Origin: a virus
Taxonomy: Duplodnaviria; Heunggongvirae; Uroviricota; Caudoviricetes
Strand: one strand, 5' to 3'
DNA length: 41,324 nucleotides
Virus record (IMG/VR): IMGVR_UViG_2671180439_000007
Location: 1-41,324 of that record
Part shown: piece after piece, positions 1,441-38,826 of the stretch
Position numbering within the stretch: the stretch's first letter is position 1
Layout: every line of letters starts with the position of its first letter
Program-made: the position numbers and the translations under genes
The notes under the pieces: generated by a model
What the model was told of the DNA's origin: nothing
The model's input: the letters and a program-made list of their open reading frames with translations, nothing else
Databases searched by the model: none

Positions 1441-2194
1441 CAATCACGCAAATACCATCTCCACCTTTTCCTGATTTGCCCACATCCTGATTGACCCCGG
1501 CACCACCGGATCCATAGGCTCTTGCATCAACAGTCGTCGCATCCTGTCCATCATAGCCTGCGCCGCCGCCCCCCCAGAATGAAACACCACCAAAGGTATT
1601 ATTTGAATAACTAGCCCCACTATTCCCATTGCCGCCTTCAATTCCGAACCCCTCACCAGTAGAACTACCACCTTTACCAAAAGAGGTTGTTCCACCAAAG
1701 GCTGTTATTAAATTACCGAATTTTGAATCCCCACCAGCATTACCAATATCTCCGGCTCCGCTACAAGATTCCCCTCCAGCCCCGATTGTGATAGTAGTAT
1801 TGCCTGCGGGTACATTAATAAAAGCAATCCGGGTCCCTCCGGCCCCGCCTGAACGAGCATAGGTTGAACTGCCAGCTGATTTTCCTCCTGATGCGCCTCC
1901 ACCAGTGATTGTAACTTTAATTTTTTTGGTTCCTTTAGTTGGAGTGTAAGTCCCTGACTTAGTAAAGGTGACAATATTAAGCAGGCGACCGCCACCAATC
2001 GCTTTAAGAACCTGTGAATCATCATCAGGATCAAGCTCAAGCCCCGCACCCTCAACAACGTTTACCAGCTCACGCTGAAAGGTATTCATCATCTCAGCAT
2101 TAATTATTGTCGGTGGAATACCATTAGCGACATTACCATTAGTGTATTCACCATTAGCATCAGCGGTGTCAGTTGTACTGCCAACTTTTCTCAT
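1427..2194 (-). CDS. Glycine-rich tail fiber protein (short)
   Basis: N-terminal segment GIPPTIINAEMMNTFQRELVNVV resembles the conserved tail-fiber N-terminal domain; remainder is GGxGG-type glycine repeats; position distal to baseplate genes. Confidence 0.6.
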   Translation of the reverse strand: MRKVGSTTDTADANGEYTNGNVANGIPPTIINAEMMNTFQRELVNVVEGAGLELDPDDDSQVLKAIGGGRLLNIVTFTKSGTYTPTKGTKKIKVTITGGGASGGKSAGSSTYARSGGAGGTRIAFINVPAGNTTITIGAGGESCSGAGDIGNAGGDSKFGNLITAFGGTTSFGKGGSSTGEGFGIEGGNGNSGASYSNNTFGGVSFWGGGGAGYDGQDATTVDARAYGSGGAGVNQDVGKSGKGGDGICVIEEYS

Positions 2195-2220
2195 ATAAAC
2201 CTTCTTTTTAAATGTCTGAA

Positions 2221-2895
2221 TTAAACGTAACCGGAAGCGATATCAAATATTCTGGCAAACTCAGGCGTGACTTCGTAAACCCCCTCATCGTTAAAACCGA
2301 AATAGATATAGCCGAATTTGACCAGGGTGTATGAGGGGGCGAGGGCATTAATCCGGCATTCAAGCTGACGATTACCCCAGGAACGTAATGGATCGCCACA
2401 ATAACTCAGACCCGCACGGGCATAAGTTATCGTTGTGTCTTCTGCCTCTACCAGCCAGACAAATGGCCAGTCATCCCCATTTAGCCCGTCACCACATACC
2501 GATAAGCCAGCACGCGCCTGCCGGTATTCCTTAATCGAAATCGTATAACCCATTGCTGCGGCAATACTGATGAAATAGCTCTTTGACTGCCCGCCGGTAC
2601 TGATGAGTTTCGATACAATGCCAGACTGACGCTTCGCAATCGTATCCACTTCGCCAATCGAGCAATCATCAGGTAAGCCGAGTGTTTTTTCCCACTCGGT
2701 GAGCATAATCGTCGCAGTTTTTGGAAAGGCACCGCGCAGCAATGCGAGTGCGTCGTTATCACTACGCTGGAAACTGGCCGCAATGGCCCGCAGTACAGCG
2801 GCCTGAACAGCTTTTGGATCCCGTGTCCACGCTCGGCCGGTGGGGATAAGCGCCTGCAGTGCCTTCTGATAATCGTCTGTTGAGAAAAGGCTCAT
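2221..2895 (-). CDS. Mu gp48-like tail protein (DUF2313/YmfQ-like)
   Basis: 224 aa; position directly downstream of baseplate J-like gene; 4-nt overlap with upstream gene (coupling). Confidence 0.6.
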   Translation of the reverse strand: MSLFSTDDYQKALQALIPTGRAWTRDPKAVQAAVLRAIAASFQRSDNDALALLRGAFPKTATIMLTEWEKTLGLPDDCSIGEVDTIAKRQSGIVSKLISTGGQSKSYFISIAAAMGYTISIKEYRQARAGLSVCGDGLNGDDWPFVWLVEAEDTTITYARAGLSYCGDPLRSWGNRQLECRINALAPSYTLVKFGYIYFGFNDEGVYEVTPEFARIFDIASGYV

Positions 2896-4040
2896 GTGTA
2901 GTTCACCTCACCACGAACAGCCAGCTCCCCAACTCCCGGCTCAATATTCGCAGAAGGCGACACAAGGATATAACCTGAAGTACCGGCAACATCCCCTATC
3001 GCACGGTTGAGATCTGAAAGGTAAATTTTCCCTGTGCCGAGCGGGTTAGCGGATTCAAACAATACCCCGTCAATCGCATCAGCAATGGCCGCAGTCGTTG
3101 CACTGTCGGCATCAGATATCCCGCTTATTTCAAAATCGATAACGCGCTTGATGGGAGAGCAGACATAGTTAAGGGAAGTAACCGGCGCAAGCTGATACAT
3201 ATAATCGGCAACTCTCCCCTGATCCCCGGTGGCTTTTACAGCCCCCCACTCTTCCAGTTGAGAGACACCGTCAGTTCCTACAGGGAATCCATGATTGGTT
3301 TTATCATCGCCGTCGCACATGATGTAAATCACCACGGTACCCGGCCCCATCCCCCGGCGCCGTATCCATGCCCTGGTGATCCCCGACACGGATAAAGCCC
3401 AGCTTTTATAATCAGTGTCACTCCCTCCCTGCGGGGGATTCTGATACGCCAGCAGACCACGTAATCGGAAATCCTCTTCACTTTCAATGTTAGCGCCGCC
3501 GGTGGCAGGCTCAATCAGCGTGACCGAGCTGTCTATGCCGGGGGCATTAGCATCCAGTGTAAGAATGGTGCCAGCATCGGCATTTCCGGAAGCGCCTCCT
3601 CCTGTCACATCGTCTGTGATATCCGGCAAAACCGCTGTTACGGCGACCGTCGCACTGCCAGTGGTATTTATCGTTATGGCGTCATCGGTTATGTACTGGT
3701 AACCATCATCACGGTTTAACACAGCCCCTTTTGACAGTGTTTTTCCCGGTGTTCCGGTAACTTTCGCCGCCGGAGAGCGTGCTGCCGTTGCGGCTTTTCG
3801 GTAAATCTGCTTTAGTGCCATCCATCCGGCAAGCCACTCATCGGTAGAGGTGAAAGGCGTGCTCTGACGGGCAATATAATCCAGGTAGGCGTAGTGCAGA
3901 TGGGCCATGCCCGCATCCATATCAGCGAGCACCTTAAGGTTGCCAAACCGCAACAACGCGCCAACACTTTCAAGCTCTGCCTGCATAAACTGGCGATTCT
4001 CCTGCCGGAGCTCGCTCAGTGTTTTCCGCTTAAATGGCAT
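2892..4040 (-). CDS. Baseplate J-like protein (Mu gp47-like)
   Basis: 382 aa; size, position and overlap pattern in a Mu-type baseplate module. Confidence 0.7.
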   Translation of the reverse strand: MPFKRKTLSELRQENRQFMQAELESVGALLRFGNLKVLADMDAGMAHLHYAYLDYIARQSTPFTSTDEWLAGWMALKQIYRKAATAARSPAAKVTGTPGKTLSKGAVLNRDDGYQYITDDAITINTTGSATVAVTAVLPDITDDVTGGGASGNADAGTILTLDANAPGIDSSVTLIEPATGGANIESEEDFRLRGLLAYQNPPQGGSDTDYKSWALSVSGITRAWIRRRGMGPGTVVIYIMCDGDDKTNHGFPVGTDGVSQLEEWGAVKATGDQGRVADYMYQLAPVTSLNYVCSPIKRVIDFEISGISDADSATTAAIADAIDGVLFESANPLGTGKIYLSDLNRAIGDVAGTSGYILVSPSANIEPGVGELAVRGEVNYT

Positions 4041-4479
4041 TATTCAGTTGCTCCCATAGCCAGAAGAATTTGAACTCCTGCCAGTCCCCCGCCGGCGGCA
4101 AATACCGGATGATGAGGTTCAGCCTGTTCGGGAAAACAATCTCTGACTGAGCCTCTATCGCTGCTGCAATACCATCCGACTTCATCCAGGCCAGAGCCTC
4201 TTCGGCGTAATCTTCAGCTCTCATCGCCACTTCGCGCGTCAGTTTTTCACGCCGCAGTAGCCACAGCCTTGAGCCAATATTCCGATCGTTGTCCAGATCC
4301 CCCCACCAGCCGCGGCGGTCAGTTCCTTCATAATCATCATCAGCGCGCGCCAGTCCGTCAGTAAACAAACTGATAATAATGGCCGTGTGCATATCATTCT
4401 CAGATGTCAGTACGCCGTTACCGGTTTGCCAGTCAGCATGAATGGCATCCACATCCCAGAATGAGGAAATATCACTCAT
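4030..4479 (-). CDS. Mu gp46-like baseplate protein
   Basis: 149 aa; overlaps neighbours by 4-11 nt; synteny with Mu gp45-gp47. Confidence 0.65.
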   Translation of the reverse strand: MSDISSFWDVDAIHADWQTGNGVLTSENDMHTAIIISLFTDGLARADDDYEGTDRRGWWGDLDNDRNIGSRLWLLRREKLTREVAMRAEDYAEEALAWMKSDGIAAAIEAQSEIVFPNRLNLIIRYLPPAGDWQEFKFFWLWEQLNNAI

Positions 4480-5057
4480 ACCTGACTCTCTGTTTTTTCG
4501 CTTGTGATCGTGCTATCGCCGGACTGAACTTCTTTAACGTCATGGTCATGATCGTTGTGAGCATCCCGCAGCGCTTTGAGCGTTGAATTGTTCGTCTCGC
4601 AGTTATCGATGATGTCACCCGTCACCAGGAGTTTGGGGGTAACCAGCTTTACCTGTTCCGTTGCCGTCGCGGTGATGTTTCTGGCATTGTTGATCTCTAC
4701 ATCTTTGCCTTTCGCATCAATGAAAATTCCCGCCTCAGTCAGATGAATATTCATCCCCTGCTGGTTATAGACCACCGTTTCGCCTGGCTTAAGCCCGGTA
4801 TGCCGGTAGCTTTGATGGTTAGAGGCAATGACGACGGGACTGGAGCGGTCCCCGCCGAGAAAGGCAATAACCACATCCGATCCCGCCGGCAACCCCGATG
4901 AAAAACCAAAATCAGAGAGCCGTGGGGCGCTGGCCACTTCCAGCGGAGTCTGGTACTGGATTTCCTGCACAACCCCGCTATCTTTCTGCGTGGTAATACG
5001 GCCAATTCCCAGCATGCCGGCGATGCGCGTGGCCGATTTCTTTAAATTTTGATTCAT
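4476..5057 (-). CDS. Baseplate assembly protein V / spike (Mu gp45-like)
   Basis: 193 aa; synteny; C-terminal HNDHDHD metal-binding-like motif typical of spike tips. Confidence 0.65.
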   Translation of the reverse strand: MNQNLKKSATRIAGMLGIGRITTQKDSGVVQEIQYQTPLEVASAPRLSDFGFSSGLPAGSDVVIAFLGGDRSSPVVIASNHQSYRHTGLKPGETVVYNQQGMNIHLTEAGIFIDAKGKDVEINNARNITATATEQVKLVTPKLLVTGDIIDNCETNNSTLKALRDAHNDHDHDVKEVQSGDSTITSEKTESQV

Positions 5058-6139
5058 TGGTTTAGTCCGGGTATTTGCTGGTAGAAAGCATAAGGCTGGA
5101 CAGCGAAAGCCTCCGGGGGCATCAGATAAAGGCGCGCATGGGTGCCGTCACTGTCTCTGATATAAGTCACCTCTGCGATAAGCAATTCGGTGTCAGGCAG
5201 CTGCAGACTCGGGATGTTGACCGGGATAAGCGTATTCGGCTCCCATAATTTCCCGGATTTATCGCGCCAGGAATCAATCGTCACCGTTAACTGACGGGAA
5301 CGGCCGTATCGGCGGTTCATCTCCCAGTCAATCGCTCGCTGAGCCTGTTGTGAAGCCATCAGTGTACTTTCAACAATAATGATCCGTTTTCGGTAACGCA
5401 TACTGGCCGCCTCAGGATCGCGGGCCGTCGCCAGCGTCACCGAATCATAAGCCGTATCTGGCGAGAATCCTGCAATCGGCGAAATGCTCATCGATACGCC
5501 GACGTAATCAGAAAAGCGGTCAGCCATCGAACGGCGGTAATAAGCCTGTTCGATATTTACCCCTTCTGCGATACCGCTGGCCGCGCGCTTTGTCCCCACC
5601 CTGGTCAGAAATAAGTTACCGTCAGGCTGATCGTAATAAAGCAATGCCGACCAGCGGGAGACACGATCAAGTATTTCCTGTGGCGATTCCCCCCAGTTCA
5701 GGGAAAATTGCGGAACTTTCACCAGATCATCAACGTCTGTACTTACGCCAATGTTGTAATGGGATGCGAGGCGGGAGGCAATATCAAGCGCATTACTGTT
5801 ATTGATGACGTTATTTGGCCATTCAGCAGAGCAATCAACGAGATCTGCGCACTTACTGCGGCCTGAGGCTCTGACTTCATGGCGCGAACGGGAAATAGCA
5901 GGCGACCAGTCATCAACATACCCCGTCACTACCAGGTCGTTACCAAGCTTTACCTGACAAGGCATCCCTTCCTTTACCAGCTGCTTCTGGTCACTTCCCG
6001 GAAAATAATCCATCAGTCCCAGGTCAAAATCGGAGGGAAAACGCTCAATGCCACGGGTCACCCGCACAGAGTCCCATCCTTCAATGATTTTTCCGCCCAC
6101 TGTCAGGGAGACAATATCCTGATCATTATCCGTACTCAT
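5054..6139 (-). CDS. Mu gp44 (P)-like tail/baseplate hub protein
   Basis: 361 aa; synteny between DNA-circularization-N-like gene and gpV-like gene. Confidence 0.6.
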   Translation of the reverse strand: MSTDNDQDIVSLTVGGKIIEGWDSVRVTRGIERFPSDFDLGLMDYFPGSDQKQLVKEGMPCQVKLGNDLVVTGYVDDWSPAISRSRHEVRASGRSKCADLVDCSAEWPNNVINNSNALDIASRLASHYNIGVSTDVDDLVKVPQFSLNWGESPQEILDRVSRWSALLYYDQPDGNLFLTRVGTKRAASGIAEGVNIEQAYYRRSMADRFSDYVGVSMSISPIAGFSPDTAYDSVTLATARDPEAASMRYRKRIIIVESTLMASQQAQRAIDWEMNRRYGRSRQLTVTIDSWRDKSGKLWEPNTLIPVNIPSLQLPDTELLIAEVTYIRDSDGTHARLYLMPPEAFAVQPYAFYQQIPGLNQ

Positions 6140-7536
6140 TGTCTCAACACCTTCATCGTCGTCGGCATAAATGCCGGATGCGGTACGCTGGCCTCCTGTA
6201 TCAGTTCATTTGCCCGCGAGGCATCCTGATACAGGCGGTTGGCCAGTACCAGGGCAGGAACCGGCACCGCAGTATTGATTTGCATCAACTCACTCAGTCC
6301 GGATGAAGTCTGAGCCATGGTATTCAGAAAAGCGGTTCTCACGTCCATCAATGCCGTATAAAGATCATCATCGCCACGGTCGCCCGCCAGTAGTAACGCG
6401 GTATCCAGTTGCCCGGCCACGCGTTGAGTGATTTCTTCGGCCTCATTACGACTGGTTGGGTTGTAATCTGCAGCAGCATCCGTCATGGCTCCGGTACATA
6501 GCACTACGATCAGCGTGTTCATGGTGCCAGCCAGTTGCTGGCTGCTTTCGGAACGCTGGTATCCGGTACTGGTTGAAGCCGCCAGTTTTTCAAATGCGGC
6601 AATTTTGTCACTCACGCTACCGGCGCTGGACAGAATGCGATTAATCACATCGGCAACGCCCTGAACAAATTCCTCGACCGATACAGATTCATTCAGTGCA
6701 GCCGTTGTATCGAGCACAGCCTGGCGATCCATCACCGCCCGGGCGGTAACCTGTTCAGACAATGCCTGATGGTCTTCTGAATCATCGGCATCACGATTGC
6801 CGTTAATACCCGAAGAGCTCCCGCCTACGGTCCCCTTGCTGTACCGCCCGTAACGATTATTCCCGAAAGTAGAATCCAGCACGTTACTGACGTTTGTTAC
6901 CTCACTGATGGTGTTATCCACCATATTGGTCCAGAACGTCACGGTTCCCCTGATGGTCTGAATCCCCTGCGACACACCGCGGATCTCGCTTTTAATTCTC
7001 GCGAGGGTACTGGCAACCGTCGTACTAACCAGCTTCAGATAGTTGGTGCCAACGGTATCCCCCGCGGCGGCACTGTCGGTAACGGCAAAGACCTTTAACC
7101 CCGACTCAATGACCATCAGGGTAAATTCAAACGAACGGCCGTTGTCGGCGGAACCGGAAAGCCTTAAACCATTCTCAGGTATGGAAACGGTCATCTCCCC
7201 CAGCGTGGGGTGAATGAGCGTACCACTCCCCTTAGCTTCACACGCATTGATCAATGACTGGCGCTGAGAAATAACGTCGCCACCGCCGTATACCAGACTG
7301 TTCTGGACGATAAAGCCACGGATAATAAATCGCCGTGTCCCGCGCCCCATATCCTCAATCCAGGCGGTATCACGGTATGGATATTCATGAACCGCCTGCC
7401 GCCGGCCATGACTGCCTTCCTCATTCACCACAGCAAAAGGCACGCCCCGGAACGAGCCGGGACGTAGCTGGCTCAACCAGTCCTCACTACCACCGCCCCC
7501 CATCAGAGAAGTTATTGCATCCTGGATAATTGCCAT
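6136..7536 (-). CDS. Mu gp43 (N)-like DNA circularization protein
   Basis: 466 aa; N-terminal LRPGSFRGVPFAV...HEYPYRD...EDMGRG pattern as recalled for Mu N family; follows the tape measure gene. Confidence 0.65.
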   Translation of the reverse strand: MAIIQDAITSLMGGGGSEDWLSQLRPGSFRGVPFAVVNEEGSHGRRQAVHEYPYRDTAWIEDMGRGTRRFIIRGFIVQNSLVYGGGDVISQRQSLINACEAKGSGTLIHPTLGEMTVSIPENGLRLSGSADNGRSFEFTLMVIESGLKVFAVTDSAAAGDTVGTNYLKLVSTTVASTLARIKSEIRGVSQGIQTIRGTVTFWTNMVDNTISEVTNVSNVLDSTFGNNRYGRYSKGTVGGSSSGINGNRDADDSEDHQALSEQVTARAVMDRQAVLDTTAALNESVSVEEFVQGVADVINRILSSAGSVSDKIAAFEKLAASTSTGYQRSESSQQLAGTMNTLIVVLCTGAMTDAAADYNPTSRNEAEEITQRVAGQLDTALLLAGDRGDDDLYTALMDVRTAFLNTMAQTSSGLSELMQINTAVPVPALVLANRLYQDASRANELIQEASVPHPAFMPTTMKVLRQ

Positions 7537-7582
7537 CAGGCCTCCTGAATTAAAAAACCGCCAGGGTGGCGGTTTAATAGGG

Positions 7583-9436
7583 TTAGTAATTCATGGCGGT
7601 TGTTATTCTGCCGTTATCCTCGACGTTATAGGTTTTCTTCTCCCCCTTATCATTGACCAGGGTGATTTCCAGCTTCATTTTCTGATCGGCCATCGCCTCT
7701 TTGAGGGACCGGGTCAGGTTTTCACTGACAGTGTCTCTCCCATTACCGGAAGCTGTCAGGATTGAGGAACTGTCAAACTTGTCCGGTTGCGGTACGAGGA
7801 TGTTCTCTCTCTGCTGGCTGAGCACTCGGCTGTCACGAAGACCAGACCAGCGCGGATCACTGATAGCCGTCTGAATTGCCGCCCGTATCTCATCTTCAGA
7901 ATATGGCTGCGCCCCATTCTCATGCTGAATCATGGCCGCCATGACTGACTTCAGCACCTCCGGGTTATGCAGATCCACCCGCTGCTGGGGTTGAATACCT
8001 GTCGCGGCCGATACTGAATTGATATAGGACTGCGTATCATTTTCCGAGCGTGGCGCATAAGTGTGGATCATGCTGTTCAGCGTGTTATTCCCACGATCGC
8101 CATATAACATCAGTTGCCGGGCCATTGCCGCCAGCCCGTCGCTGCTGTTGTCATAAGTGACGAAACCACGATTCACCCCGGTCGCATTAGGCGCTATCCG
8201 GAGATTGCCGGGGTTATTATTTCTCAGGCCCAGTGCCTGGTTAGATGGCTGGCTGTAATTCACTTCTCTGCGTGGAGCTGCTGCACCTGCTGGCAGGATG
8301 ACAGACAAATCATTTCGGAGTTGTTCAGCTCTGTCCCCGGCGCCATATTGCGCGTCGTAGCGTTTACGGACGGCATCAGTCATAAAGCCGGCATCCACCG
8401 CTCCGCGCTCGCGCCGGGAAAGGGTGTTATACAGCGCCTTATCACCCTGAATGCGGCGTAGCTTCCAGGCATCCTTGCTACTGATAAACCCCAGCGCATG
8501 CGACAGCCCGGTGAAATCGCCATTCGTGAACAAGTCGGTCACTCCTTCAAGGCCGTCTTTCACCGAACCATCGGAAAGCAATCCCTTAAACAGAGAGTTT
8601 TTCGAACGGTTTTTCAGCCCATCCCATGCAGCGCCCAGCTCATTCATGGAGCCGTTAACCTCGGACAATTGCCGGTTAAGTTCCGGATCAACCGTCAGGC
8701 CAAGTTCATCAGATTTAGCCAGCAATGCTTTCATCCGTACGCCTTCACGCATCAGCGCCAGCATTTCCGGCGTCAACCCGAGGGCATCGGAAACTGATTT
8801 CTGCTGGTCCGGTCGCAGACTCGGGAAAACGCGTGCTATCGACTCCAGCGTTCTCAGCGTATCAACGGATCCATCATTGTTTTTCTGGATCTGAACGCCA
8901 ATCTGTGACAATGCGCCGAGCACCTGGCTGTTGGCACCACTGGCGGCCTCCTTCAGGCTTTTAGCCATCCCCTCGATGGAGGAATTTGCACTGTCGCCAT
9001 CAGCACCCAGTATCCGCATGGTACCGGACAGGCGGGAAAAATCGTCCACTCGCATACCCGCATTTTTCGCGGCGACATCGAGGTTATAGGCTTCCCTTGA
9101 GGCCTCATGGAAACCGTAGGCAATCTGTTTTAGCCCATATCCCGCCGCTCCAACAACCCCCAGTGATGCCAGCTTACCGGAGAGCTCACCGACCATCTTC
9201 AGCGGTGGTACCATGTCCCCGATGTACTGAACATTATCACGGGCATTTTTGGACAGATTTTCGAAGCGGGAAATAAAGCCGTTCAGTCCATCGAGGGTCT
9301 CCTGCCCTCCTAACTGGAGTCCCTCTTTGGTTTTATCCAGCTTTGGTTCCAGATCACGGATAGCCTCATTGATACGCTCAATGGCTTCCGTCGCCTGGTC
9401 GCTGGCCACCAGCTCAAAGTCGAAAGAATTACTCAT
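7583..9436 (-). CDS. Tail tape measure protein
   Basis: 617 aa, largely predicted helical/low complexity, immediately downstream of frameshifted chaperone pair. Confidence 0.75.
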   Translation of the reverse strand: MSNSFDFELVASDQATEAIERINEAIRDLEPKLDKTKEGLQLGGQETLDGLNGFISRFENLSKNARDNVQYIGDMVPPLKMVGELSGKLASLGVVGAAGYGLKQIAYGFHEASREAYNLDVAAKNAGMRVDDFSRLSGTMRILGADGDSANSSIEGMAKSLKEAASGANSQVLGALSQIGVQIQKNNDGSVDTLRTLESIARVFPSLRPDQQKSVSDALGLTPEMLALMREGVRMKALLAKSDELGLTVDPELNRQLSEVNGSMNELGAAWDGLKNRSKNSLFKGLLSDGSVKDGLEGVTDLFTNGDFTGLSHALGFISSKDAWKLRRIQGDKALYNTLSRRERGAVDAGFMTDAVRKRYDAQYGAGDRAEQLRNDLSVILPAGAAAPRREVNYSQPSNQALGLRNNNPGNLRIAPNATGVNRGFVTYDNSSDGLAAMARQLMLYGDRGNNTLNSMIHTYAPRSENDTQSYINSVSAATGIQPQQRVDLHNPEVLKSVMAAMIQHENGAQPYSEDEIRAAIQTAISDPRWSGLRDSRVLSQQRENILVPQPDKFDSSSILTASGNGRDTVSENLTRSLKEAMADQKMKLEITLVNDKGEKKTYNVEDNGRITTAMNY

Positions 9437-9856
9437 CGGGTTCGGGATTCCTGAGTTTATTGATACGGGAGGCCTGCGATACCCACCACTTCAGACGGGC
9501 ATAGGTCATGCCCCATGCCCTGTCTTCTGTCCAGCGGAAATAAAATGTGACGTCAGCGGCCGTTTCCTGCCAGGCGGTCAGGGCTTCCAGGTCAAAAAAC
9601 CGAGCAAAAACTCCTCGCATTTTCGGAAGTCGATAAAATCCATCGGCTGAAGCACACTTTCCCGCGTATCCGTGACCAGCGAGATCAGCAGGCGCATCGC
9701 CGCCAGTGAAGTGGACGATGCCTGCTTTTCGTAGAACTGCTCTGCCTGGCTGAGCGTCGGCGCCTTCAGCTCCAGTTGCTCATAGCGTGTTTTTTGCGCC
9801 TCATCGACCAGAGGCTTGATGAGGGGAATGACTTTGGTGCGTTCAAGTTCTGCCAT
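9429..9856 (-). CDS. Tail assembly chaperone pair (G/GT-like) with putative programmed -1 frameshift
   Basis: 92-aa ORF (9578-9856) overlaps a 63-aa ORF (9429-9620) in the -1 frame; slippery heptamer T TTT TTG (plus-strand CAAAAAA at 9593-9599) lies in the overlap. Confidence 0.6.
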
Positions 9857-9857
9857 C

Positions 9858-10229
9858 TTAGTTCTCCGTTACGTCCCGGCCTTCCCAGCGAACATCAAAC
9901 ACTGCATCTTCGCTTTCCACTTCCTGAACGTTCACCGTCCATAGCGCGCGACCGATAATAGTCTTTCCGTTCGCCAGTTCGGCGATCACGTTGACGTTCG
10001 TCTGTTTGTTAAAACCCAGTACGTTGGTACCGCCGCTGTCGCGAAGACGGGCAGAAATATACGGGGCAACCGGCTTTTCTTTGTAGCCATGCACACCGTC
10101 CATGCCTGTCAGTGTGGTACGGTTAACAGTGGAGGTCTGATACTTGAATGAGCCCTCCACCATAACGGTCACCCCGTTTACGGTGACATAAGCGGTACCT
10201 GCCAGGCGATTAGTGGTATCTCCAGCCAT
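9858..10229 (-). CDS. Tail tube protein (Mu gp40/M-like)
   Basis: 123 aa; directly follows the sheath gene. Confidence 0.75.
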   Translation of the reverse strand: MAGDTTNRLAGTAYVTVNGVTVMVEGSFKYQTSTVNRTTLTGMDGVHGYKEKPVAPYISARLRDSGGTNVLGFNKQTNVNVIAELANGKTIIGRALWTVNVQEVESEDAVFDVRWEGRDVTEN

Positions 10230-10232
10230 GTT

Positions 10233-11744
10233 TTATGCTCCTGTTGATTCAGCCTGCAGGCGGAACTGGTTAAGCAGCGCGAAGATGCGCAACTGGTTCA
10301 TAAGCGTTCCCGGCCACAACACATCGACGCGGTTCGGATTTGTTTTGTTCTGCTCCACGATAATGTTTCTGGCGAAGGCCTCAGCGTCCTGCGCGTAGCC
10401 GTTAAAGACCAGCGTCTGGTATTCCGCGATCTGATCGGCTCTGATGATGTTTGGCGTCACTATCGCCGCCCCCGGCGCAAAACGCGTGCCATCCGCGGCC
10501 AGCTTCATGCGCCCAAATTTACTGGTCACTGCAGTGCGGAGATATCGCGTGACAAACATCAGGCTGAAGAGCGTTTCCACCTGAAGGTAACTGTCGTCTT
10601 CGTCGCCATAGCTGTTTTTCTGGTAGGTGGTAATCAGGTTTTCAATCATCACCGTCCCGTCATCACCCACGGTGTAAGTGGAGATGCCGCTGTACAGCAG
10701 GTTGTTGCGCTCTGTCAGCTCAAAGCGATCCGCCAGGTCCGGTGCCAGCACGCCATAAACAGGCAGACTTTGTAGCGGACGTGCGGGGTCATTACGCAGG
10801 CTGGGTGCGGCGGCCCCTGTCAGTGCCGCCGCCCAGATATAACGCGGTGACGGTGAGCGATACACACCAAGCAGTGACTCATGCTGGTTATTACGGGTTT
10901 CCCCTTTGGTGCCAAGCTCGGCGTAAGTGCCGTTGGTAGTGGTGAATGCGTGGCCATAAAGCTGTTTATCCCATGCCCAGCGGCCGGTTGCATCGTTCAG
11001 AAATTCTCTGATGGCATCCAGTGATGCGGTGTCATCATAAGGGTTGATGACAAAATCAAAGGTCTTATCCTGCAGGTTGCCAAGGGCATCAACAAAATCC
11101 GGCGCGCCGGCGCCGCCGGTCATGCCCGTGATGGTGAGTGTCAGGCCCGCGGGCGTCACCTCACCACCCTGAACACCGAGATAATTCAGCCTGATATCAA
11201 TACCATTGCCCAGCAACCCGGCATTTTTGGCCGTCAGTGTCACGGTATCCGTTGCATCGGCTTTTACAGCAGCTGTCACCGGCAGTTCCGTTTTGCGGGT
11301 AATCGCCGCGACCAGCGCAGTGGCAATCTGAGCCGGAGTGTCAGTCGCCAGTACGGTCAGTTGTACGCGAACGCCAGCAATATAAAGAGAGATAACGCCG
11401 GTTTCTGCCGCCTGTGTGGCAACCTTGATACTGCCAGTGGCCACTGCCATCGAATCCGTATCATCAGCCAGCGGAAGGATCCAGACCTCCGCAGCAGTAT
11501 CGTTTTTTTGATACGCCGTCATCATGCCATGCAGCATTGATCCTTTTCCGGTGAGCTCACCCACCGCATTGGGAGAGGAGACTTTTACCGGGATTTTTTC
11601 CTGTGCAGAGCCTGATGCCAGCATCTGACCAATCAACAGCGTTCGTTGTGTAGCCGTCGCCGTGTTGGCCATGGAGTTATCAAACTCCACATAAAAAAGC
11701 GGCACACGTAAATTGCCGGGAACTCGCGAAAATGGAACGGTCAT
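10233..11744 (-). CDS. Contractile tail sheath protein (Mu L-like)
   Basis: 503 aa; size and position upstream of tube gene. Confidence 0.8.
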   Translation of the reverse strand: MTVPFSRVPGNLRVPLFYVEFDNSMANTATATQRTLLIGQMLASGSAQEKIPVKVSSPNAVGELTGKGSMLHGMMTAYQKNDTAAEVWILPLADDTDSMAVATGSIKVATQAAETGVISLYIAGVRVQLTVLATDTPAQIATALVAAITRKTELPVTAAVKADATDTVTLTAKNAGLLGNGIDIRLNYLGVQGGEVTPAGLTLTITGMTGGAGAPDFVDALGNLQDKTFDFVINPYDDTASLDAIREFLNDATGRWAWDKQLYGHAFTTTNGTYAELGTKGETRNNQHESLLGVYRSPSPRYIWAAALTGAAAPSLRNDPARPLQSLPVYGVLAPDLADRFELTERNNLLYSGISTYTVGDDGTVMIENLITTYQKNSYGDEDDSYLQVETLFSLMFVTRYLRTAVTSKFGRMKLAADGTRFAPGAAIVTPNIIRADQIAEYQTLVFNGYAQDAEAFARNIIVEQNKTNPNRVDVLWPGTLMNQLRIFALLNQFRLQAESTGA

Positions 11745-11926
11745 TTAATTACGCCCTCTTTTTTTACGGCGTTTTTAACGCCCTTTTCCGGTACCAGACT
11801 GACGTCGCCATCCTTCAGGCGGCGACGCCAGAACGTATTATCAGGTACCTCCGCGCCATCTTTGGGCAAAGGCTCCCCCCTGACAGGGCAGCGAACGCTG
11901 AGCCCATCCTTCGGTTTTACAAACAT
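11741..11926 (-). CDS. Small Mu-like tail-module protein (DUF2635-like)
   Basis: 61 aa, overlaps sheath gene start by 4 nt; sequence MFVKPKDGLSVRCPV...WRRRLKDGDV. Confidence 0.5.
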   Translation of the reverse strand: MFVKPKDGLSVRCPVRGEPLPKDGAEVPDNTFWRRRLKDGDVSLVPEKGVKNAVKKEGVIK

Positions 11927-11928
11927 GA

Positions 11929-12474
11929 TTACTCCTGAAGGTCTATTTTTACGCCCGGCTGCGGCGTACCGTCCGGCATGTCGATGGTGATGTCGATCCC
12001 CGCCAGCGGCACCGTATCAACCGGATAAAAGTCTTCCGGTCCCTGATAGTGCTCAATATCAATTTCGATAAGCAGCTGGCCCATATGCGCTTCACCATCC
12101 GCATCAACATCAATCGTCGAGCGGACCTCCGCATATTTCTGGATGTTCCGGGTTAACTCGTAGCTGTTAATCACCGCCCTTTCTACCTGTTCCCGGAGCT
12201 CTTCCAGCGCAACCTCCGCGCGCATGGCGCCATCATCAGCGGTTTCACTGTCGTACTCCTGAACCCGGCCAGTAATGCGAACGGTGGTCAAAGAGGTAAA
12301 GGCCGGGACATTTCTCCCCTGCGCCTTTTTGTGATCAAATGGCGTCTGAACAAGCAACGCTGGGTACAGGTCCGGCGAAGTTGCCCAGTCACGCGGGGAA
12401 TACACACGATCGGCGGCAGCCGTTTTATCTTTCAGCGCGGCCACGACCATGTGTCGTATTGCGGAAGCATTCAT
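11929..12474 (-). CDS. Mu gp37-like virion protein
   Basis: 181 aa; synteny. Confidence 0.5.
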   Translation of the reverse strand: MNASAIRHMVVAALKDKTAAADRVYSPRDWATSPDLYPALLVQTPFDHKKAQGRNVPAFTSLTTVRITGRVQEYDSETADDGAMRAEVALEELREQVERAVINSYELTRNIQKYAEVRSTIDVDADGEAHMGQLLIEIDIEHYQGPEDFYPVDTVPLAGIDITIDMPDGTPQPGVKIDLQE

Positions 12475-12830
12475 CGGGTTTTCGCCACATTGAGAACAAG
12501 ACGTGAGCCGCCATGGCTGTCCGGTTCGACGTTGGACACAACAAATAACTGATTGATGATCTGACCTCCGACCGTTTTGATAAACACACGGTCAGATACG
12601 GCAGGTTGCGGTTTACCCAACTGACGAAATTCAGCATCGCGCACCCCAAGCATTGGGCTGGAGGTGTTAATTTCTGAATCACCATCAAGATTTTCTGCAA
12701 CCTGCGCATAGCCACGGTCAAAAATACCGTTAATCGTAAAAGGAGTACCGTTGCGGGGACGGTACTCATGCTCATCGCCAAACACGCCATGGAGCGGACT
12801 CAGAAGATGTAAATCCCAGTCCACGCCCAT
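12471..12830 (-). CDS. Mu gp36-like protein (DUF1834-like)
   Basis: 119 aa; synteny, 4-nt overlap. Confidence 0.5.
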   Translation of the reverse strand: MGVDWDLHLLSPLHGVFGDEHEYRPRNGTPFTINGIFDRGYAQVAENLDGDSEINTSSPMLGVRDAEFRQLGKPQPAVSDRVFIKTVGGQIINQLFVVSNVEPDSHGGSRLVLNVAKTR

Positions 12831-12834
12831 ATGC

Positions 12835-13212
12835 TCACTCCGTTGTTATTTTCACACCACGCGCAGCAGATAACGCGCGCTGTCGCAGAGCATGGATATC
12901 GGCAATTACACCTGCGGCCAGCAGACGCTCGGCATCCTTACCGGAGACCGGAATTAGGGAGTTTTCCCGGTAAACCTCACCGTCATGGCGAATGCAGTTC
13001 CCTTTCAGGACCACAAACTCAGGTTCCGCTACTTCCTGAAAATCTTCTTCATCGTCATCCTGATCATCAGATGAATCGCCGTCTTTTTCGTCATACTGAT
13101 GCGTCATCTGAACGCTGCCGCCGGCATTCAGGTCGTCGATATTCAGGGCGTCTTCGGTGGCGCCTTCAGCATTCAGATCATCGACCTGCTCGGTTTTAGA
13201 GATTTTTGCCAT
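12835..13212 (-). CDS. Acidic hypothetical virion protein (head completion/connector candidate)
   Basis: 125 aa with DDQDDDEED acidic stretch; between capsid gene and tail module. Confidence 0.4.
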   Translation of the reverse strand: MAKISKTEQVDDLNAEGATEDALNIDDLNAGGSVQMTHQYDEKDGDSSDDQDDDEEDFQEVAEPEFVVLKGNCIRHDGEVYRENSLIPVSGKDAERLLAAGVIADIHALRQRALSAARGVKITTE

Positions 13213-13213
13213 A

Positions 13214-14263
13214 TCAGACCACCGTCGCGCAGAGGGATGCGTTTACCCGGCTCGGAATAACCAGCGGGGAGGATTGCATCAGGATAAGACGCTGGGCCGG
13301 ATCTTCTTTCACCCAGGATTTTGGCGCATAGGCCAGGGGACCGTAGTTAAATGCCGGGTCCAGGATAACGCCAAAAGCGCGGGTACCCATCAGATCAGCG
13401 CCAGACATAATAACGGCGCCGTCGGGGATCATCGGCTTCTCGACATTATCAAGTGGGTCAATAAACCAGTCGTTATATAACCAGAGGTCAAAGTTACCCC
13501 AGCGACCTTTATAAATAGCGCCCTTCATCGCCTGTGGACCAGCATTAATCTGGTTACCAAACGGGCTCAGCGCCGGGAACGTGATGGCGTTATCTTTGAT
13601 GGTGGTGTCCAGTCGGAAAGCACGCCATGACTTGCTTGTGAACACCAGATCTGTCGCGACGGAACCGGATTCTTTCAGGAAAAGCGTCTGCCAGGTTTCA
13701 ATATCATCAGAGGGCTGGGTATTAGTGGCACCCGCGGCAACCTTCAACGGCCACTTATCTGAACCACTCAGAGTGATAGTCAAATCCGGAGAGCGCCCGA
13801 AATCCACCACTTTGGTTTCATAGCCTTCCCCGGCAACCGTGACGGTACCGGACACCAGAGCGCTGGCCGCCATCCATTCCAGCCGACGGTTGATCATGTC
13901 AATCTGATCAGTCATCTCAAACTGCAGGTTCAACATTTCGCGTTCTGCGGCGGTATATTCACCGCCAATACGCTCACCAATCTGGCGGCGGATAGGTTTA
14001 CGCAGGTCCGGCGCCCGCTTGTCTTTGATGTACGCCGGTTTGAACGTATTGGTCTGGTATTTACGGGACTCGACCAGCTTACCTTCCACCAGCGGGGAGA
14101 CGAATGGCGCCATACGACGCATGCCGACATCCACGTCAATCGCTACTTCTTCGGTCTCATAAGTCACGACGTTCGGGAAGAAGCGATCAAGCAGCCAGTT
14201 CTGACTGGTTTTCAGGTTAGGAACGACCTGCACCAGCACACTGGTATCATAAATATTTTCCAT
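13214..14263 (-). CDS. Major capsid protein, lambda gpE family
   Basis: 349 aa; C-terminal ILMQSSPLVIP resembles lambda E; preceded by D-like decoration gene. Confidence 0.8.
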   Translation of the reverse strand: MENIYDTSVLVQVVPNLKTSQNWLLDRFFPNVVTYETEEVAIDVDVGMRRMAPFVSPLVEGKLVESRKYQTNTFKPAYIKDKRAPDLRKPIRRQIGERIGGEYTAAEREMLNLQFEMTDQIDMINRRLEWMAASALVSGTVTVAGEGYETKVVDFGRSPDLTITLSGSDKWPLKVAAGATNTQPSDDIETWQTLFLKESGSVATDLVFTSKSWRAFRLDTTIKDNAITFPALSPFGNQINAGPQAMKGAIYKGRWGNFDLWLYNDWFIDPLDNVEKPMIPDGAVIMSGADLMGTRAFGVILDPAFNYGPLAYAPKSWVKEDPAQRLILMQSSPLVIPSRVNASLCATVV

Positions 14264-14361
14264 ATTCAGTCTCTTGATAATGCCAGCTAGACGCTGGCAT
14301 AAATTTTAAATAGGTCAGCGCCTGCCGGTTAAAGCATTCGCCAGGATAAATGAGGGATAAA

Positions 14362-14769
14362 TCAGGAGGTGGTTAAAGGTGCCTGGGCGCTGTCTTTCAG
14401 GAAGATGGCCAGCGGACGTAGTGCTGTTTTCAGTTCCTGCGCAGTCCAGGAATCGTCAAAAATAATATGATTCTGGTTGAACTCGCCCATCAGGTACAGG
14501 CCGCCGGACTGATCGCCATGGGTGGAAGCGTCAACATCATCAACCAGAATGGCCGCTGGCTTCTCGCTACCATCCGTTGCGGTTTTCACACTGGATGTAT
14601 ATTTGCCACTGGCGGTGATCATGCCAAGCACAGTGCCACGCTTATACACACCGCCGGTGATCGTGCCGGTGTCAGTGACCAGTTGCAGCGTACCGGCAAT
14701 TAACTGATCCGGCACAAACACTGAACTCTTCATGCCAGGTGCAAAGGCATTCTGACCAAATTGATCCAT
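14362..14769 (-). CDS. Head decoration protein (lambda D-like)
   Basis: 135 aa; position between scaffold and capsid. Confidence 0.65.
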   Translation of the reverse strand: MDQFGQNAFAPGMKSSVFVPDQLIAGTLQLVTDTGTITGGVYKRGTVLGMITASGKYTSSVKTATDGSEKPAAILVDDVDASTHGDQSGGLYLMGEFNQNHIIFDDSWTAQELKTALRPLAIFLKDSAQAPLTTS

Positions 14770-15359
14770 TATTTCTCTCCTTTAATGGAGTTGTAGAGGC
14801 CGGTCATCTGGTTTACCAGTGCCGATTTACTGTTCTCTTTCTTGCCGCCATCCGGATTCAGACGGACATCATAGCTTTCCTGCATGCGCTGATCGAGAGA
14901 GCGCCCGCGCGTTGCCTTTGGTTGCAAGGCTGGCGCCGTGGATGCCAGAACATCGATAGCGGCGGCAGAGCTCATCCCGGTATTGAATGCGAGTGAAGCG
15001 GCCAGTGACGGATTCGCCGCAGCGTGCTTACTGCCGAAGATACGGGCGCAACGTTTACGCTCGGCGGCGCGGGCATTTTTCACCGCTTTGCTTTCTTTGC
15101 GGTCATCGTCGCCGTCATCTTCGGAATCGTCATCGTCTTCAGCCGCATCCGGGTCGTCACCGTCATCTTCAGCGTCATCATCACGATCGTCGTTTTCCGC
15201 GTCATCTTCGCGTTCATCGTCCCCGGCATCATCTTCGCGCTCATCCTCTTCCGCGCGACGGCCTTTCGCTTTTTTGGCCTTTTTGTCCTCTTCCTCTTCG
15301 GAAGCAGTCGCGCTACGGCCAATAAGATGAGCAAAACTAAAAGTCTTTTTCTTCGCCAT
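14769..15359 (-). CDS. Scaffold protein (Nu3-like), acidic
   Basis: Start chosen at ATG 15359 with AGGAG SD immediately after protease stop at 15361; long D/E-rich low-complexity tract. Confidence 0.5.
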   Translation of the reverse strand: MAKKKTFSFAHLIGRSATASEEEEDKKAKKAKGRRAEEDEREDDAGDDEREDDAENDDRDDDAEDDGDDPDAAEDDDDSEDDGDDDRKESKAVKNARAAERKRCARIFGSKHAAANPSLAASLAFNTGMSSAAAIDVLASTAPALQPKATRGRSLDQRMQESYDVRLNPDGGKKENSKSALVNQMTGLYNSIKGEK

Positions 15360-15360
15360 T

Positions 15361-16227
15361 TCAGGCTCCTGTTTTTTCAAGTAAGTTTCTGAACGCAGCA
15401 TCAGGAGGACACACCTCATCAGCCAGTCCAAGTTCCACACCATCAGCAGCCATAAAACAGGCAGCCTGAGTACTTTTGATAACCTTTGCGCTAATCCCCC
15501 GATTTCTGGCGACGGTATTCACAAACAATTCGCCCATGGTGTTGATGTCCTGCTGAATAGCCGCCAGCGCTTCATCTGACAGCTCTCTCAGCGGTGACCC
15601 CTCAGCCTTACGGGAACCGTAGGTGATGATGGTGACTTTGAGGCCGTCATCTTTTATCCGCTGGGTCCAGTCAAGGTGCATAGTGATCACACCAACTGAA
15701 CCCACACCACCGGTTCGGGGAACAGAAATCCGGTCCGCCGCACTGGCAATCGCATAGGCGGCGGAATAGGCGCTTTCCGTCAGAATGGCATGGATGGGCT
15801 TTTTCCCGCGGGCGCCATAAATGACATCTACCAGATCGAAACATCCGGCGACCTCGCCTCCTGGCGAATCAATATCCAGGCAGATCCCTGTAATATCGGG
15901 GTCTTCCATAGCAGTCAGGAAGGCCTGACGAATGCCGTCATAGCCTGTCATGCCACTGTATGGGCGCAGGCTACCCAGCTTCTGCACCAGGGTCCCACAT
16001 ATCGGGATGACAGCGACGCCCAACACATTGTCATAACCCGGGTCGCTACGGGATTCCCGCCCCCGGTTATCGTCGTATCCATACCAGTCATCATCCATGG
16101 CAAGAGAGGATTCGATTTTACTGATGCCAAACCGGTCCATAACGGATGCCATGATGACTTCAGCTTTACTTGGGTGCAGCGCCAGCGGTGTATTAAAAAG
16201 GCGCTGGGCCAGATGAGGTAGATTCAT
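15361..16227 (-). CDS. Head maturation protease, S49 peptidase family (lambda C-like)
   Basis: 288 aa; SppA/ClpP-like fold signature region DIDSPGGEV...; 4-nt overlap with portal. Confidence 0.8.
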   Translation of the reverse strand: MNLPHLAQRLFNTPLALHPSKAEVIMASVMDRFGISKIESSLAMDDDWYGYDDNRGRESRSDPGYDNVLGVAVIPICGTLVQKLGSLRPYSGMTGYDGIRQAFLTAMEDPDITGICLDIDSPGGEVAGCFDLVDVIYGARGKKPIHAILTESAYSAAYAIASAADRISVPRTGGVGSVGVITMHLDWTQRIKDDGLKVTIITYGSRKAEGSPLRELSDEALAAIQQDINTMGELFVNTVARNRGISAKVIKSTQAACFMAADGVELGLADEVCPPDAAFRNLLEKTGA

Positions 16228-17858
16228 TTTTCCTCCGGATCGGTAATTGTCTGGCTGGCGAACTGGTCCGCCTGCGCCCAGCTAGGTAATGGAAGTCCGC
16301 GCTTCAGGCAGGACTCAATTTCCCGCTGGCGCTGATCAAGTATCTCTTCCCAGTCCTCACCCACGTTTTCACCCACTTCAATTTCGAGAGTGGAAAGGCC
16401 GGCATCGAGGCCGAGAATGGCGCCTTTTTTCTCTGCCACCGGATCAACCCATCCTCGCCCCGGCCCCATCCAGCGCGCACGGGAATACGCAGCCCGGGCA
16501 TCAACAAAATCAGGGGCATCATTAGGTAGAGGTAAATCCTCGTTATCGTGAACTTCCTCCACAAAGGCCGTCAGAAGCGGCTGCGCGGTACCCATGGAAA
16601 AATCATCACGTCGGCGGGTGAGCGTTTTCCATGCCTCCAGCAAGGAAGATCGCGCAGAGCTGTAATTCACATCAGACCAGTCCTGTGTAACCTGCTGAGG
16701 AGATAACCCCGTACCGGATGAGAAATTACGCAATACTGCAGACTCGAAAACCTCAAAGTTGCTGTAAGGGCGGGCAGCGTTGACCGTTGTTATTCTCTCC
16801 CCTGGATAAAGGATCGGCATACGGGCGCCATTCTGCAGCGTCAAACGGCGATCATTATGAAACTCTGCACGACCATCCTGGTATGCTCCCAATCCCTCTT
16901 CGAAGTTTTCCCCCAGCGCGGACTGGATCATTTCGGGATCGTATGGAGACTCAATATACGCAGCGAAGATAGCATTCAGAATTGCTGCTTCCAGCTCGCT
17001 CTGGTCGTACTTCACCAGCATCTTCAGACGTTGCACTACTGGAGTCAGAATGCCATTCCCCCGATGCTGAGCTCCACGCTCATGGTCAAAGTCGTGCACA
17101 ACGTGCGGGCGCCCCCATGCGGTTTCGCGCGGGATTCGTCGCCATGTCATTGTTTTGGCGCCACTCCACCAGTCACCGATATGTGCTTCACGTATGTGAT
17201 AAGCCACAGGTGCGCCGTCAGCATCAATTTCAACGCCGCCGCGGATATTCGGCATATCAAAATTCTGCTGCGGGTTACTGAGTCTGTCGGGATCAACAAC
17301 CTGCACCGTCGTGGCATAACGCCCCTTACCTGGTCCAAGGCGATCGGTGCGATACTGAAGCACCATCAGGGCATCGCCATCAATCAGCTTGTGGCGAAAG
17401 GCCAGACGCAACATTTGTGGAACGGTTAGCTTGCGCTCAACGTCACAATAACGGCCTGTGTCGTATGCCCAGGTTCTCCAGTGGGAAGCGAGTGCTTTTC
17501 CGTACTCTTCCGCCCATACTGCGTCAAAACTTTTATTACCTGTCATCATCCGTAATACACGATAGTCAGGCTTCATGATCGGACGGAAATTGGCGCCGAC
17601 CGCATTATCAAGCAGGCGAGTTATGGCACCATTGGCCCATCCATCATTTCGGACCAGATCCCGCGCACGGGAAACTATACGGTCACGATAGATATTAATT
17701 TCGTTATCCGGTGACCATAGTGCGGGCTGCCAGTTCGCCAGTTGATCGCTGAAGGAATCCGCGGCGTCATATGGCACCCGGCTACCGCCCGTCAACATGC
17801 TGGGTTTTGGTGCCTGATAAGGTCTCCCGTCAGGACCAAGGATTTGCACTTTATTCAT
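16224..17858 (-). CDS. Portal protein, lambda B family
   Basis: 544 aa; synteny W-B-C. Confidence 0.85.
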   Translation of the reverse strand: MNKVQILGPDGRPYQAPKPSMLTGGSRVPYDAADSFSDQLANWQPALWSPDNEINIYRDRIVSRARDLVRNDGWANGAITRLLDNAVGANFRPIMKPDYRVLRMMTGNKSFDAVWAEEYGKALASHWRTWAYDTGRYCDVERKLTVPQMLRLAFRHKLIDGDALMVLQYRTDRLGPGKGRYATTVQVVDPDRLSNPQQNFDMPNIRGGVEIDADGAPVAYHIREAHIGDWWSGAKTMTWRRIPRETAWGRPHVVHDFDHERGAQHRGNGILTPVVQRLKMLVKYDQSELEAAILNAIFAAYIESPYDPEMIQSALGENFEEGLGAYQDGRAEFHNDRRLTLQNGARMPILYPGERITTVNAARPYSNFEVFESAVLRNFSSGTGLSPQQVTQDWSDVNYSSARSSLLEAWKTLTRRRDDFSMGTAQPLLTAFVEEVHDNEDLPLPNDAPDFVDARAAYSRARWMGPGRGWVDPVAEKKGAILGLDAGLSTLEIEVGENVGEDWEEILDQRQREIESCLKRGLPLPSWAQADQFASQTITDPEEK

Positions 17859-18121
17859 CAGAATCTGAACCTCACTGGCTTCCGTGGCCGGGCGACAATT
17901 CCCAGTTGCGCCTGCAGCAACTGAATCAGCGCCAGCAGGTCGGCGAGAGAGCTTTGCTGATAGGAGACAGAGCGCGTCCCATCACCCTGCGTATAGGCGA
18001 ATGAGACGCCACGGCTGCCGGTAGTCAGGTCGATATAAGCCTGCTGCGCTTTCTGCAGAGCGTCTCTGAGCTGCTCATCAGTCATCCCACCAGCAAGTAA
18101 GCTCGTGTTTCGGTTAAACAT
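17858..18121 (-). CDS. Head-tail joining protein (lambda gpW-like)
   Basis: 87 aa between terminase large subunit and portal. Confidence 0.65.
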   Translation of the reverse strand: MFNRNTSLLAGGMTDEQLRDALQKAQQAYIDLTTGSRGVSFAYTQGDGTRSVSYQQSSLADLLALIQLLQAQLGIVARPRKPVRFRF

Positions 18122-18129
18122 GGTTTTCC

Positions 18130-26548: not shown

Positions 26549-26550
26549 AA

Positions 26551-38476: not shown

Positions 38477-38826
38477 TGGAGCCATACAGCCTCACACTCG
38501 ATGAGGCCTGTCATTTTCTCAAGATATCCAGACCGACTGCCATTAACTGGATACGCACAGGGCGTCTTCAGGCAACACGCAAAGATCCCACTAAGAATAA
38601 ATCTCCTTACCTCACAACACGACAAGCCTGCATTGCGGCTCTTCAGTCTCCGCTGCATACTGTCCAGGTGAGCGCGGGTGATGGCATAACAGAGGAAAGA
38701 AAATGTCACTCTTCCGCAGAGGTGAAATATGGTACGCCAGTTTCACATTGCCGAACGGTAAAAGATTTAAACAGTCTCTTGGAACAAAGGACAAAAGGCA
38801 GGCGACAGAACTCCATGACAAGCTAA
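38476..38826 (+). CDS. xis: Excisionase
   Basis: 116 aa; [29 protein letters not shown]; overlaps integrase start as in P22-type modules. Confidence 0.65.

Follow-up and report, generated by a model that had tools for sequence, protein, structure and literature searches.

Probable programmed −1 ribosomal frameshifting in the tail assembly chaperone gene of a contractile-tailed temperate prophage

In the virus record IMGVR_UViG_2671180439_000007 of IMG/VR, a stretch of 41,324 nucleotides (nt) analyzed at its full length and called the window below, a small tail gene (ORF1) overlaps a second open reading frame (ORF) that lies in the −1 frame and runs up to the tape measure gene. The locus thus raises the question of whether the second frame is a gene of its own, an accident of sequence, or the far end of a longer ORF1 product reached by frameshifting. 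A first-pass annotation of the sequence had proposed the last of these, with a slippery heptamer in the overlap as the site of the shift. Our analysis indicates that the window, which represents a contractile-tailed temperate prophage, very probably carries a programmed −1 ribosomal frameshift in its tail assembly chaperone gene. This class of frameshifts is already known from the E/E+E' genes of phage P2, and what is new is an unannotated member of it in this prophage. The coordinates of the features are collected in Table 1.

The anatomy of the locus was examined first at the level of the single sequence. The coordinates and frames that had been given for the two ORFs upstream of the tape measure gene were all correct, as were the phase and the position of the heptamer T TTT TTG within their overlap. 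The heptamer stands in the correct X XXY YYZ phase, and ORF1 contains no other in-frame X XXY YYZ. The first codon after a −1 shift is GAC (9593-9591), and the predicted fusion of 142 amino acids (aa) has the coding sequence complement(join(9429..9593,9593..9856)), in which base 9593 is read twice. The stop codon of the extension sits inside ATGAGTAA, overlapping the tape measure ATG (9436-9434), and ends 5 nt beyond that ATG. The +1 frame is shut 25 nt past the ORF1 stop. Taken from one sequence alone, the heptamer has no significance against chance: TTTTTTG occurs 18 times in the window against an expectation of 12.4 ± 3.1, and when the codons of ORF1 were shuffled, an in-frame X XXY YYZ appeared somewhere in 10-14% of the trials.

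The assignment of ORF1 to the tail assembly chaperones was upheld by a match to PF10109, Phage_TAC_7 (E, or 41 or 14), with 29.9 bits at a gathering cut-off of 25, covering residues 11-88 of 92. ORF1 also matches the tail protein family phrog_166 (E=1.8e-25), its homologues in the protein database likewise carry PF10109, and it lies between the tube and tape measure genes, as is expected of members of this family.

To place the slip site in relatives, we used 80 viral contigs, 29 species-representative genome loci, and the isolates phiNP (Citrobacter) and BZS1 (Serratia), with ORF1 identities ranging from 100% down to 42%. A phmmer search with ORF1 gave 29 representative clusters, and the genome scan was carried out with the narrower alignment A2, as alignment A1 was too diverse. 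The slip site was placed in 111 loci, corresponding to 56 unique 97-nt contexts, and either TTTTTTG or TTTTTTA was present in the same codon phase in every one of them (111/111 loci and 56/56 contexts). The genera represented are Escherichia, Klebsiella, Citrobacter, Salmonella, Edwardsiella, Kluyvera, Yersinia, Serratia, Photorhabdus, Xenorhabdus, and Morganella. Codon 86, which supplies the first T of the heptamer, is GGT, AGT, TCT, GCT, AAT, GTT, CAT, TTT, or CCT, ending in T throughout and encoding eight different amino acids (G, S, A, N, V, H, F, P). Among 40 unique ORF1 sequences of the close clade, 13 of the 93 third-codon positions were invariant. Five of these are forced (three Met codons, one Trp codon, and the stop), six belong to codons 86-89, 91, and 92, i.e., to the heptamer and the dual-coding overlap, and the remaining two are at K8 and codon 81. 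In the relatives, the zero-frame stop follows the heptamer at a distance of 10 to 43 nt. Because the motif, its phase, and its position are all kept in relatives, the arrangement is non-random.

The longer fused product expected by the first-pass annotation also stood as a prediction, since the −1 frame is open to the start of the tape measure gene and the extension bears the marks of purifying selection. Across lineages, the −1 frame is open for 48-55 codons and ends a few nt from the tape measure start; the overlap of stop and start codons is kept in relatives and in P2. The +1 frame is shut 7-91 nt past the ORF1 stop in the relatives, bar one truncated locus. Past the ORF1 stop, variation counted in the −1 frame affected 37 of 49 third positions versus 40 of 97 first and second positions (Fisher p=1e-4). 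When 18 diverse fusion products were aligned, 24 residues of the whole fusion were invariant, and 9 of them lie in the extension (W96, A101, T104, W109, L122, W125, Q128, A129, and R131). The extension furthermore matches phrog_10636 (E=2.8e-20), and the match covers only the region past the slip site. This coding signature identifies the extension, as far as sequence can tell, as a translated domain under purifying selection. A sequence search of the PDB with the fusion found no relative, and an AlphaFold model of the fusion made without an alignment was unusable (mean predicted local distance difference test score 45.5).

The closest known counterpart is found in P2. According to PMC3091744, which cites Christie et al. 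(2002), P2 produces gpE (91 aa) and, through a −1 frameshift at TTTTTTG, gpE+E' (142 aa), and GenBank AF063097 describes the product as an essential tail protein made by −1 frameshifting. The two systems share PF10109, the gene order sheath, tube, E, E', tape measure, and the heptamer together with the codon preceding it (P2 reads GTC GGT TTT TTG). The product sizes are 91/142 aa in P2 versus 92/142 aa here, and in both the extension ends in ATGAGTAA over the start of the tape measure gene, which is gene T in P2 (L086, 2351-2358). Pairwise BLAST of the two fusions aligned 83 residues across the junction with 25% identity. With hhalign, the profile of the 18 fusions matched P2 gpE+E' with a probability of 93.9% and an E-value of 1.6e-7 (residues 4-131 versus 1-135), pairing GFL with GFL and ADVT.Y..W...AW..T..RL.WW..QA.R with ADVAVIFHWPPSELYPMSLTELITWREKALR of P2. 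The profile alignment to P2 E+E' runs through both parts of the fusion.

The first-pass annotation had called the arrangement a G/GT-type one. The type of event, a −1 frameshift in a tail chaperone gene, was correct, whereas the precise homologue is P2 E/E+E' rather than lambda G/GT. Lambda makes gpG and gpGT with a −1 frameshift at G GGA AAG. The tape measure protein is bound by the domain common to both and the tube protein by the T domain, the ratio of the two products is critical, and neither is present in virions (Levin 1993; Xu 2004, 2013, 2014; all as cited in PMC5009743). Our element has in common with lambda the logic of a chaperone and its frameshifted form at a fixed ratio, the gene order, and an 8-nt overlap at the tape measure start (T/H in lambda, 10542-10549; 9429-9436 in the window). 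The lambda tail, in contrast, is non-contractile and the slippery sequence is another one. Sequence similarity to lambda G/GT was not found, nor was a search aimed at it made, and any transfer of function from lambda G/GT to this element is by analogy. Mu shares the name of the Pfam family and has homologous neighbors, namely sheath L, tube M, the tape measure, N, P, and gp45. According to a note in AF083977 citing PMID 15469818, its frameshift is a verified −2 shift, i.e., into the other alternative frame, and gp41 of Mu has 144 aa and no T-run. A Mu gp41-type −2 extension is absent here, where the +1/−2 frame closes soon and the conserved extension lies in the −1 frame. Judged by homology, the element is P2-like at its recoding site within a Mu-like tail module (N/P/gp45/gp46/gp47), and in the latter respect it differs from P2.

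In the mechanism that we infer, covering the slippage and its frequency as well as the helper element and the binding partners, the majority of ribosomes would finish ORF1 at its TGA and release the 92-aa chaperone. A minority would slip back by one base on U UUU UUG, where UUU in the P site is paired with tRNA-Phe and UUG in the A site with tRNA-Leu, and would go on to read GAC CTG GAA and the rest of the 54 further codons to give the 142-aa fusion. Such tandem slippage would yield the junction peptide LLGFLDLEALTAWQETAADVTFYFR (GFLDLE), while a GFFDLE junction would instead mean slippage in the P site only or a U added during transcription. Pairing of 16S rRNA with the Shine-Dalgarno (SD)-like hexamer GAGGAG, 11 nt upstream of the heptamer, may raise the frequency of slippage. 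Going by homology to P2 and analogy to lambda, the N-terminal domain common to both products would coat the tape measure protein and the C-terminal domain of the long form would recruit tube subunits; both products would be absent from the virion, in a ratio set by the slippage frequency.

A shift of frame at a T-run could also arise during transcription, if RNA polymerase added one U at the run of six T and the edited mRNA were translated normally. The slip site is indeed a homopolymer, a few relatives have runs of T7 or T8 (L107, L110, and L113), and one public assembly with seven T encodes an in-frame fusion, from which it appears that a message with one extra U would yield a sensible protein. 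This 134-aa in-frame fusion (P0001/L117; Raoultella ornithinolytica GCA_901420735.1) was itself considered as evidence and set aside as a probable homopolymer assembly error: the seven T at the slip site (1758-1765) are accompanied by a compensating 1-nt deletion about 100 nt downstream (~1855-1865), in a single assembly; a genuine mutant that makes the fusion alone is the less likely reading. Transcriptional slippage in bacteria is productive at runs of about 9 A or T (PMC5009743), against six in nearly all relatives. In addition, the phase of the run is fixed as NNT TTT TTR, where R is only G or A, which tandem tRNA slippage requires and RNA polymerase does not. The conserved SD-like element at 11 nt suits a ribosomal mechanism, and for the homologous site in P2 the annotation gives a translational frameshift. 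We consider transcriptional slippage improbable.

Still less probable is that the downstream ORF is a separate small gene of 63 aa, started at ATG 9620 and ending at 9429, that overlaps ORF1 through ordinary gene packing. In the window, this ATG lies in a −1 frame that is open from 9779 onward, phrog_10636 is a stand-alone PHROGs family for the extension, and some gene callers call the extension separately (P0120). Against this, ATG 9620 has no preceding SD sequence and is not kept: in the commonest variant (41 loci) its place is taken by GTG, and a −1-frame TGA follows at once, at a distance of five codons from the heptamer. Sequences of the L089 type have a −1-frame TAG directly next to the heptamer, and in neither case is there an ATG, GTG, or TTG between the −1-frame stop and the conserved extension. 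As such stops stand 0-5 codons before the heptamer in many relatives, the extension cannot start independently there. The phrog_10636 match takes in residues 21-62 of the 63-aa ORF, and the alignment of the fusion with P2 gpE+E' extends over the junction. Confined between a −1-frame stop on the upstream side and the zero-frame stop on the downstream side, the shift that gives access to the extension has to fall within about 21 nt that hold only this slippery motif. The least probable alternative is that a chance heptamer beside an open frame, or a decaying remnant, is all there is and only the 92-aa protein is made and needed; the shuffling and the TTTTTTG count would allow it for a single sequence, but the heptamer is kept in 100% of the loci across genera while 80 of the 85 other third positions vary, the extension and the tape measure overlap are conserved as described above, and P2 gpE+E' is essential.

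Several observations weigh against a programmed frameshift at this site. Neither the records nor the papers of phiNP and BZS1 mention a frameshift. With hmmscan, the extension had no match to Pfam PF06528 (Phage_P2_GpE) at E≤10, in which it differs from P2 E' itself (2.1e-22) and for which it has diverged too far, and it is disrupted in 2 of 31 distant loci (L102 and L109, both at contig ends). U_UU.U_UU.G is absent from the efficient E. coli heptamers (PMC4066793), so slippage is probably modest here; a heptamer this weak fits a low shift frequency or the need for a helper. The first-pass annotation had pointed to a downstream stimulatory structure as something to be sought, and at the canonical spacing it was absent: neither single-sequence folding nor RNAalifold on 48 unique relatives gave a conserved hairpin or pseudoknot 5-9 nt 3' of the heptamer. 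The candidate helper is instead the SD-like element upstream, and in P2 an SD-like sequence lies just 3-4 nt upstream of the heptamer, compared with 11 nt here. The SD idea is thus not general to P2, and the feature, if real, is lineage-specific.

In sliding RNAalifold windows opening 0-12 nt past the heptamer, the consensus folding energy was about −1.8 kcal/mol, and the z-score of the single-sequence fold downstream of the heptamer was −1.56. A consensus stem with the heptamer in its 5' arm was rejected as a stimulator, as the ribosome would already have melted it. PMC3091744 describes P2 and its relatives as also being without a downstream stimulatory structure; neither system has one at the canonical spacing.

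The upstream element is conserved. The duplex of GAGGAG with the anti-SD sequence has an energy of −8.4 kcal/mol, and an SD-like site (≤ −5 kcal/mol) occurs at equal spacing in 95% of the 56 unique contexts, with Morganella as the single clear exception. The residues encoded at the site differ (Cys-Glu-Glu, Cys-Gln-Glu, Cys-Lys-Glu, or Cys-Arg-Glu), while the Glu codon is GAG in every case and GAA in none. Of the 7 cases in which Arg is encoded, 6 use CGG or AGG, resulting in CGGGAG or AGGGAG. These two Arg codons are rare in enterobacteria. Outside the overlap, K8 and the third base of codon 81 are the only synonymous sites in the close clade that are invariant without being forced. Taken together, this pattern suggests selection on the SD-like element at the nucleotide level, and from it we infer a candidate role in which GAGGAG may stimulate slippage. 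SD sequences are known to stimulate −1 frameshifting at a spacing of 9-14 nt (PMC5009743). The cassettes of E. coli dnaX and of insertion sequences (IS) similarly have an SD-like sequence 9-14 nt 5' of X XXY YYZ, to which GAGGAG here and AGGGAG/CGGGAG in relatives would correspond at 11 nt, in a putative stimulatory role. Our element has a weaker motif and no 3' element at the canonical spacing; in dnaX, a 3' stem-loop is present as well, and the shift on A AAA AAG reaches about 50%.

Farther downstream, the stable hairpin within the extension ORF (Table 1) is also the consensus structure in the close clade, with one compensatory pair. In the distant clade (Photorhabdus/Xenorhabdus/Serratia/Yersinia; L094-L115), a different hairpin of 10 bp is found about 60 nt 3' of the heptamers; it spans the W-G-P...A-W-L codons, 96.8% of the cells are paired, and its covariation was reached by 0 of 500 shuffles. 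These hairpins are probably not classical stimulators, being too distant from the slip site. One may tentatively suppose, although we think it rather doubtful, that the frameshift is tuned by lineage-specific RNA elements of a kind not known from tail-chaperone frameshifts, namely the SD-like element 11 nt upstream and possibly a hairpin 60-70 nt downstream. The clades would then build the downstream hairpin from different segments of sequence and keep the SD-like element even by way of rare CGG/AGG codons. If this were true, an rRNA-assisted stimulator of the dnaX/IS style would set the chaperone ratio in a phage tail operon. The conserved upstream element and the hairpins 60-70 nt downstream are the only points of the locus that we regard as mildly novel.

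In three relatives (L004, L007, and L011), a further T TTT TTG stands in phase 12 nt upstream of the main heptamer (GAT TTT TTG CTC GGT TTT TTG), and the window has the near-motif G TTT TTG at 9605-9611. A shift at this additional heptamer would enter the open −1 frame as well, altering only four residues, and this heptamer could be a redundant or additive slip site. At the other end of the extension, the tape measure ATG is without an evident strong SD sequence. Combined with the ATGAGTAA overlap, this raises the possibility of translational coupling between the ribosomes that have shifted frame and the tape measure gene.

Table 1. Features of the recoding site and of the surrounding tail genes (window coordinates).
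Feature	Coordinates	Strand	Description
Slippery heptamer T TTT TTG	9593..9599	(-)	plus-strand CAAAAAA; phase GG[T TTT TTG], codons 86-88 (Gly86-Phe87-Leu88)
−1 frame extension (E'/T-like)	9429..9593	(-)	54 codons, DLEALTAWQETAADVTFYFRWTEDRAWGMTYARLKWWVSQASRINKLRNPEPDE, then TAA 9431-9429
SD-like GAGGAG	9611..9616	(-)	ends 11 nt 5' of heptamer; candidate frameshift stimulator
Stable hairpin in extension ORF	9493..9525	(-)	AGAC-A-GGGCAUGGG / CCUAUGCCC-GUCU; 68 nt 3' of heptamer; predicted in minimum free energy folds
ORF1, zero-frame tail assembly chaperone (gpE/gpG-like)	9578..9856	(-)	92 aa; ATG 9856, TGA 9580-9578
Tail sheath gene	10233..11744	(-)	503 aa; PF04984, PF17482; phrog_165 E=2.5e-191; opens the sheath-tube-chaperone-tape measure block
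Tail tube gene (Mu M-like)	9858..10229	(-)	123 aa; PF10618 Tail_tube E=1.1e-35; directly 5' of chaperone
Tape measure gene	7583..9436	(-)	617 aa; phrog_2276 E=6.5e-142; weak PF10145 match
Mu N-like baseplate gene	7536-6136	(-)	466 aa
Mu P-like baseplate gene	6139-5054	(-)	361 aa
gp45-like baseplate gene	5057-4476	(-)	193 aa

The baseplate genes of this block were recognized by Pfam and PHROGs matches to DNA_circ_N, GpP-like, and Mu_Gp45. Between 9000 and 12000, the minus strand showed no promoter-like sites, and the stretch from the tube gene to the tape measure gene was free of terminator-like sites; the sole minus-strand terminator-like match in 9000-12000 lies within the sheath gene. Residues ~389-530 of the tape measure protein match phrog_873 and phrog_7182, annotated as endolysin or tail-injection transglycosylase, which suggests a cell-wall-degrading domain embedded in this protein.

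The prophage as a whole is a mosaic of a lambda/HK97-like head module (terminase, gpW, portal, S49 protease, decoration protein, and major capsid) and a Mu-like contractile tail. Its structural module (1924-20390) shares 99.2% identity with a prophage of E. coli ECCTRSRTH03; the early/regulatory half (~21.7-41.3 kb) is unrelated to that prophage. The tail segment was found in 19 of 5426 complete E. coli genomes. An integrase gene is located at 38703-39866, and the stretch 40071-41324 holds an aldehyde dehydrogenase-like host gene. The plus-strand region 25388-27240 is likely a defense cassette. Its first product has a GmrSD_N domain and matches PADLOC NsnA (E=7.7e-45) as well as PD-T4-2_A, and a HEPN protein of the MAE_28990 type comes next. 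The region is flanked on the minus strand, at 23743-24795 and 27209-28249, by two methyltransferase genes, one of the N6/N4 DNA type and one of the C5 cytosine type. An Acyl_transf_3 (PF01757) gene at 291-1358 on the plus strand adjoins the tail-fiber end of the prophage, and its product may be an O-antigen acetyltransferase, i.e., a serotype-conversion moron.

Existing annotations contain the short product only. RefSeq/PGAP lists the 92-aa protein as "phage tail assembly protein", has no feature in the 141 nt ahead of the tape measure gene, and annotates the tape measure as "hypothetical protein". The GenBank records of phiNP and BZS1 likewise give the 92-aa product and omit the long one, so that about 140 nt upstream of the tape measure gene look non-coding. 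In the phage collection, the subfamily was present only in these two isolates, and tblastn returned the fusion as two pieces in two frames.

The frameshift raises no new question in phage biology. The SD-like element offers a simple, testable case of a weak heptamer boosted without a 3' structure. The comparative set is a clean natural example for training frameshift predictors, because the first T of the heptamer is kept through at least nine codons and −1-frame stops narrow the place of the shift down to about 21 nt. The value of the finding lies mainly in annotation, in that an essential tail protein, as predicted from P2, would be missing from the proteomes of a prophage family that is widespread in Enterobacterales.

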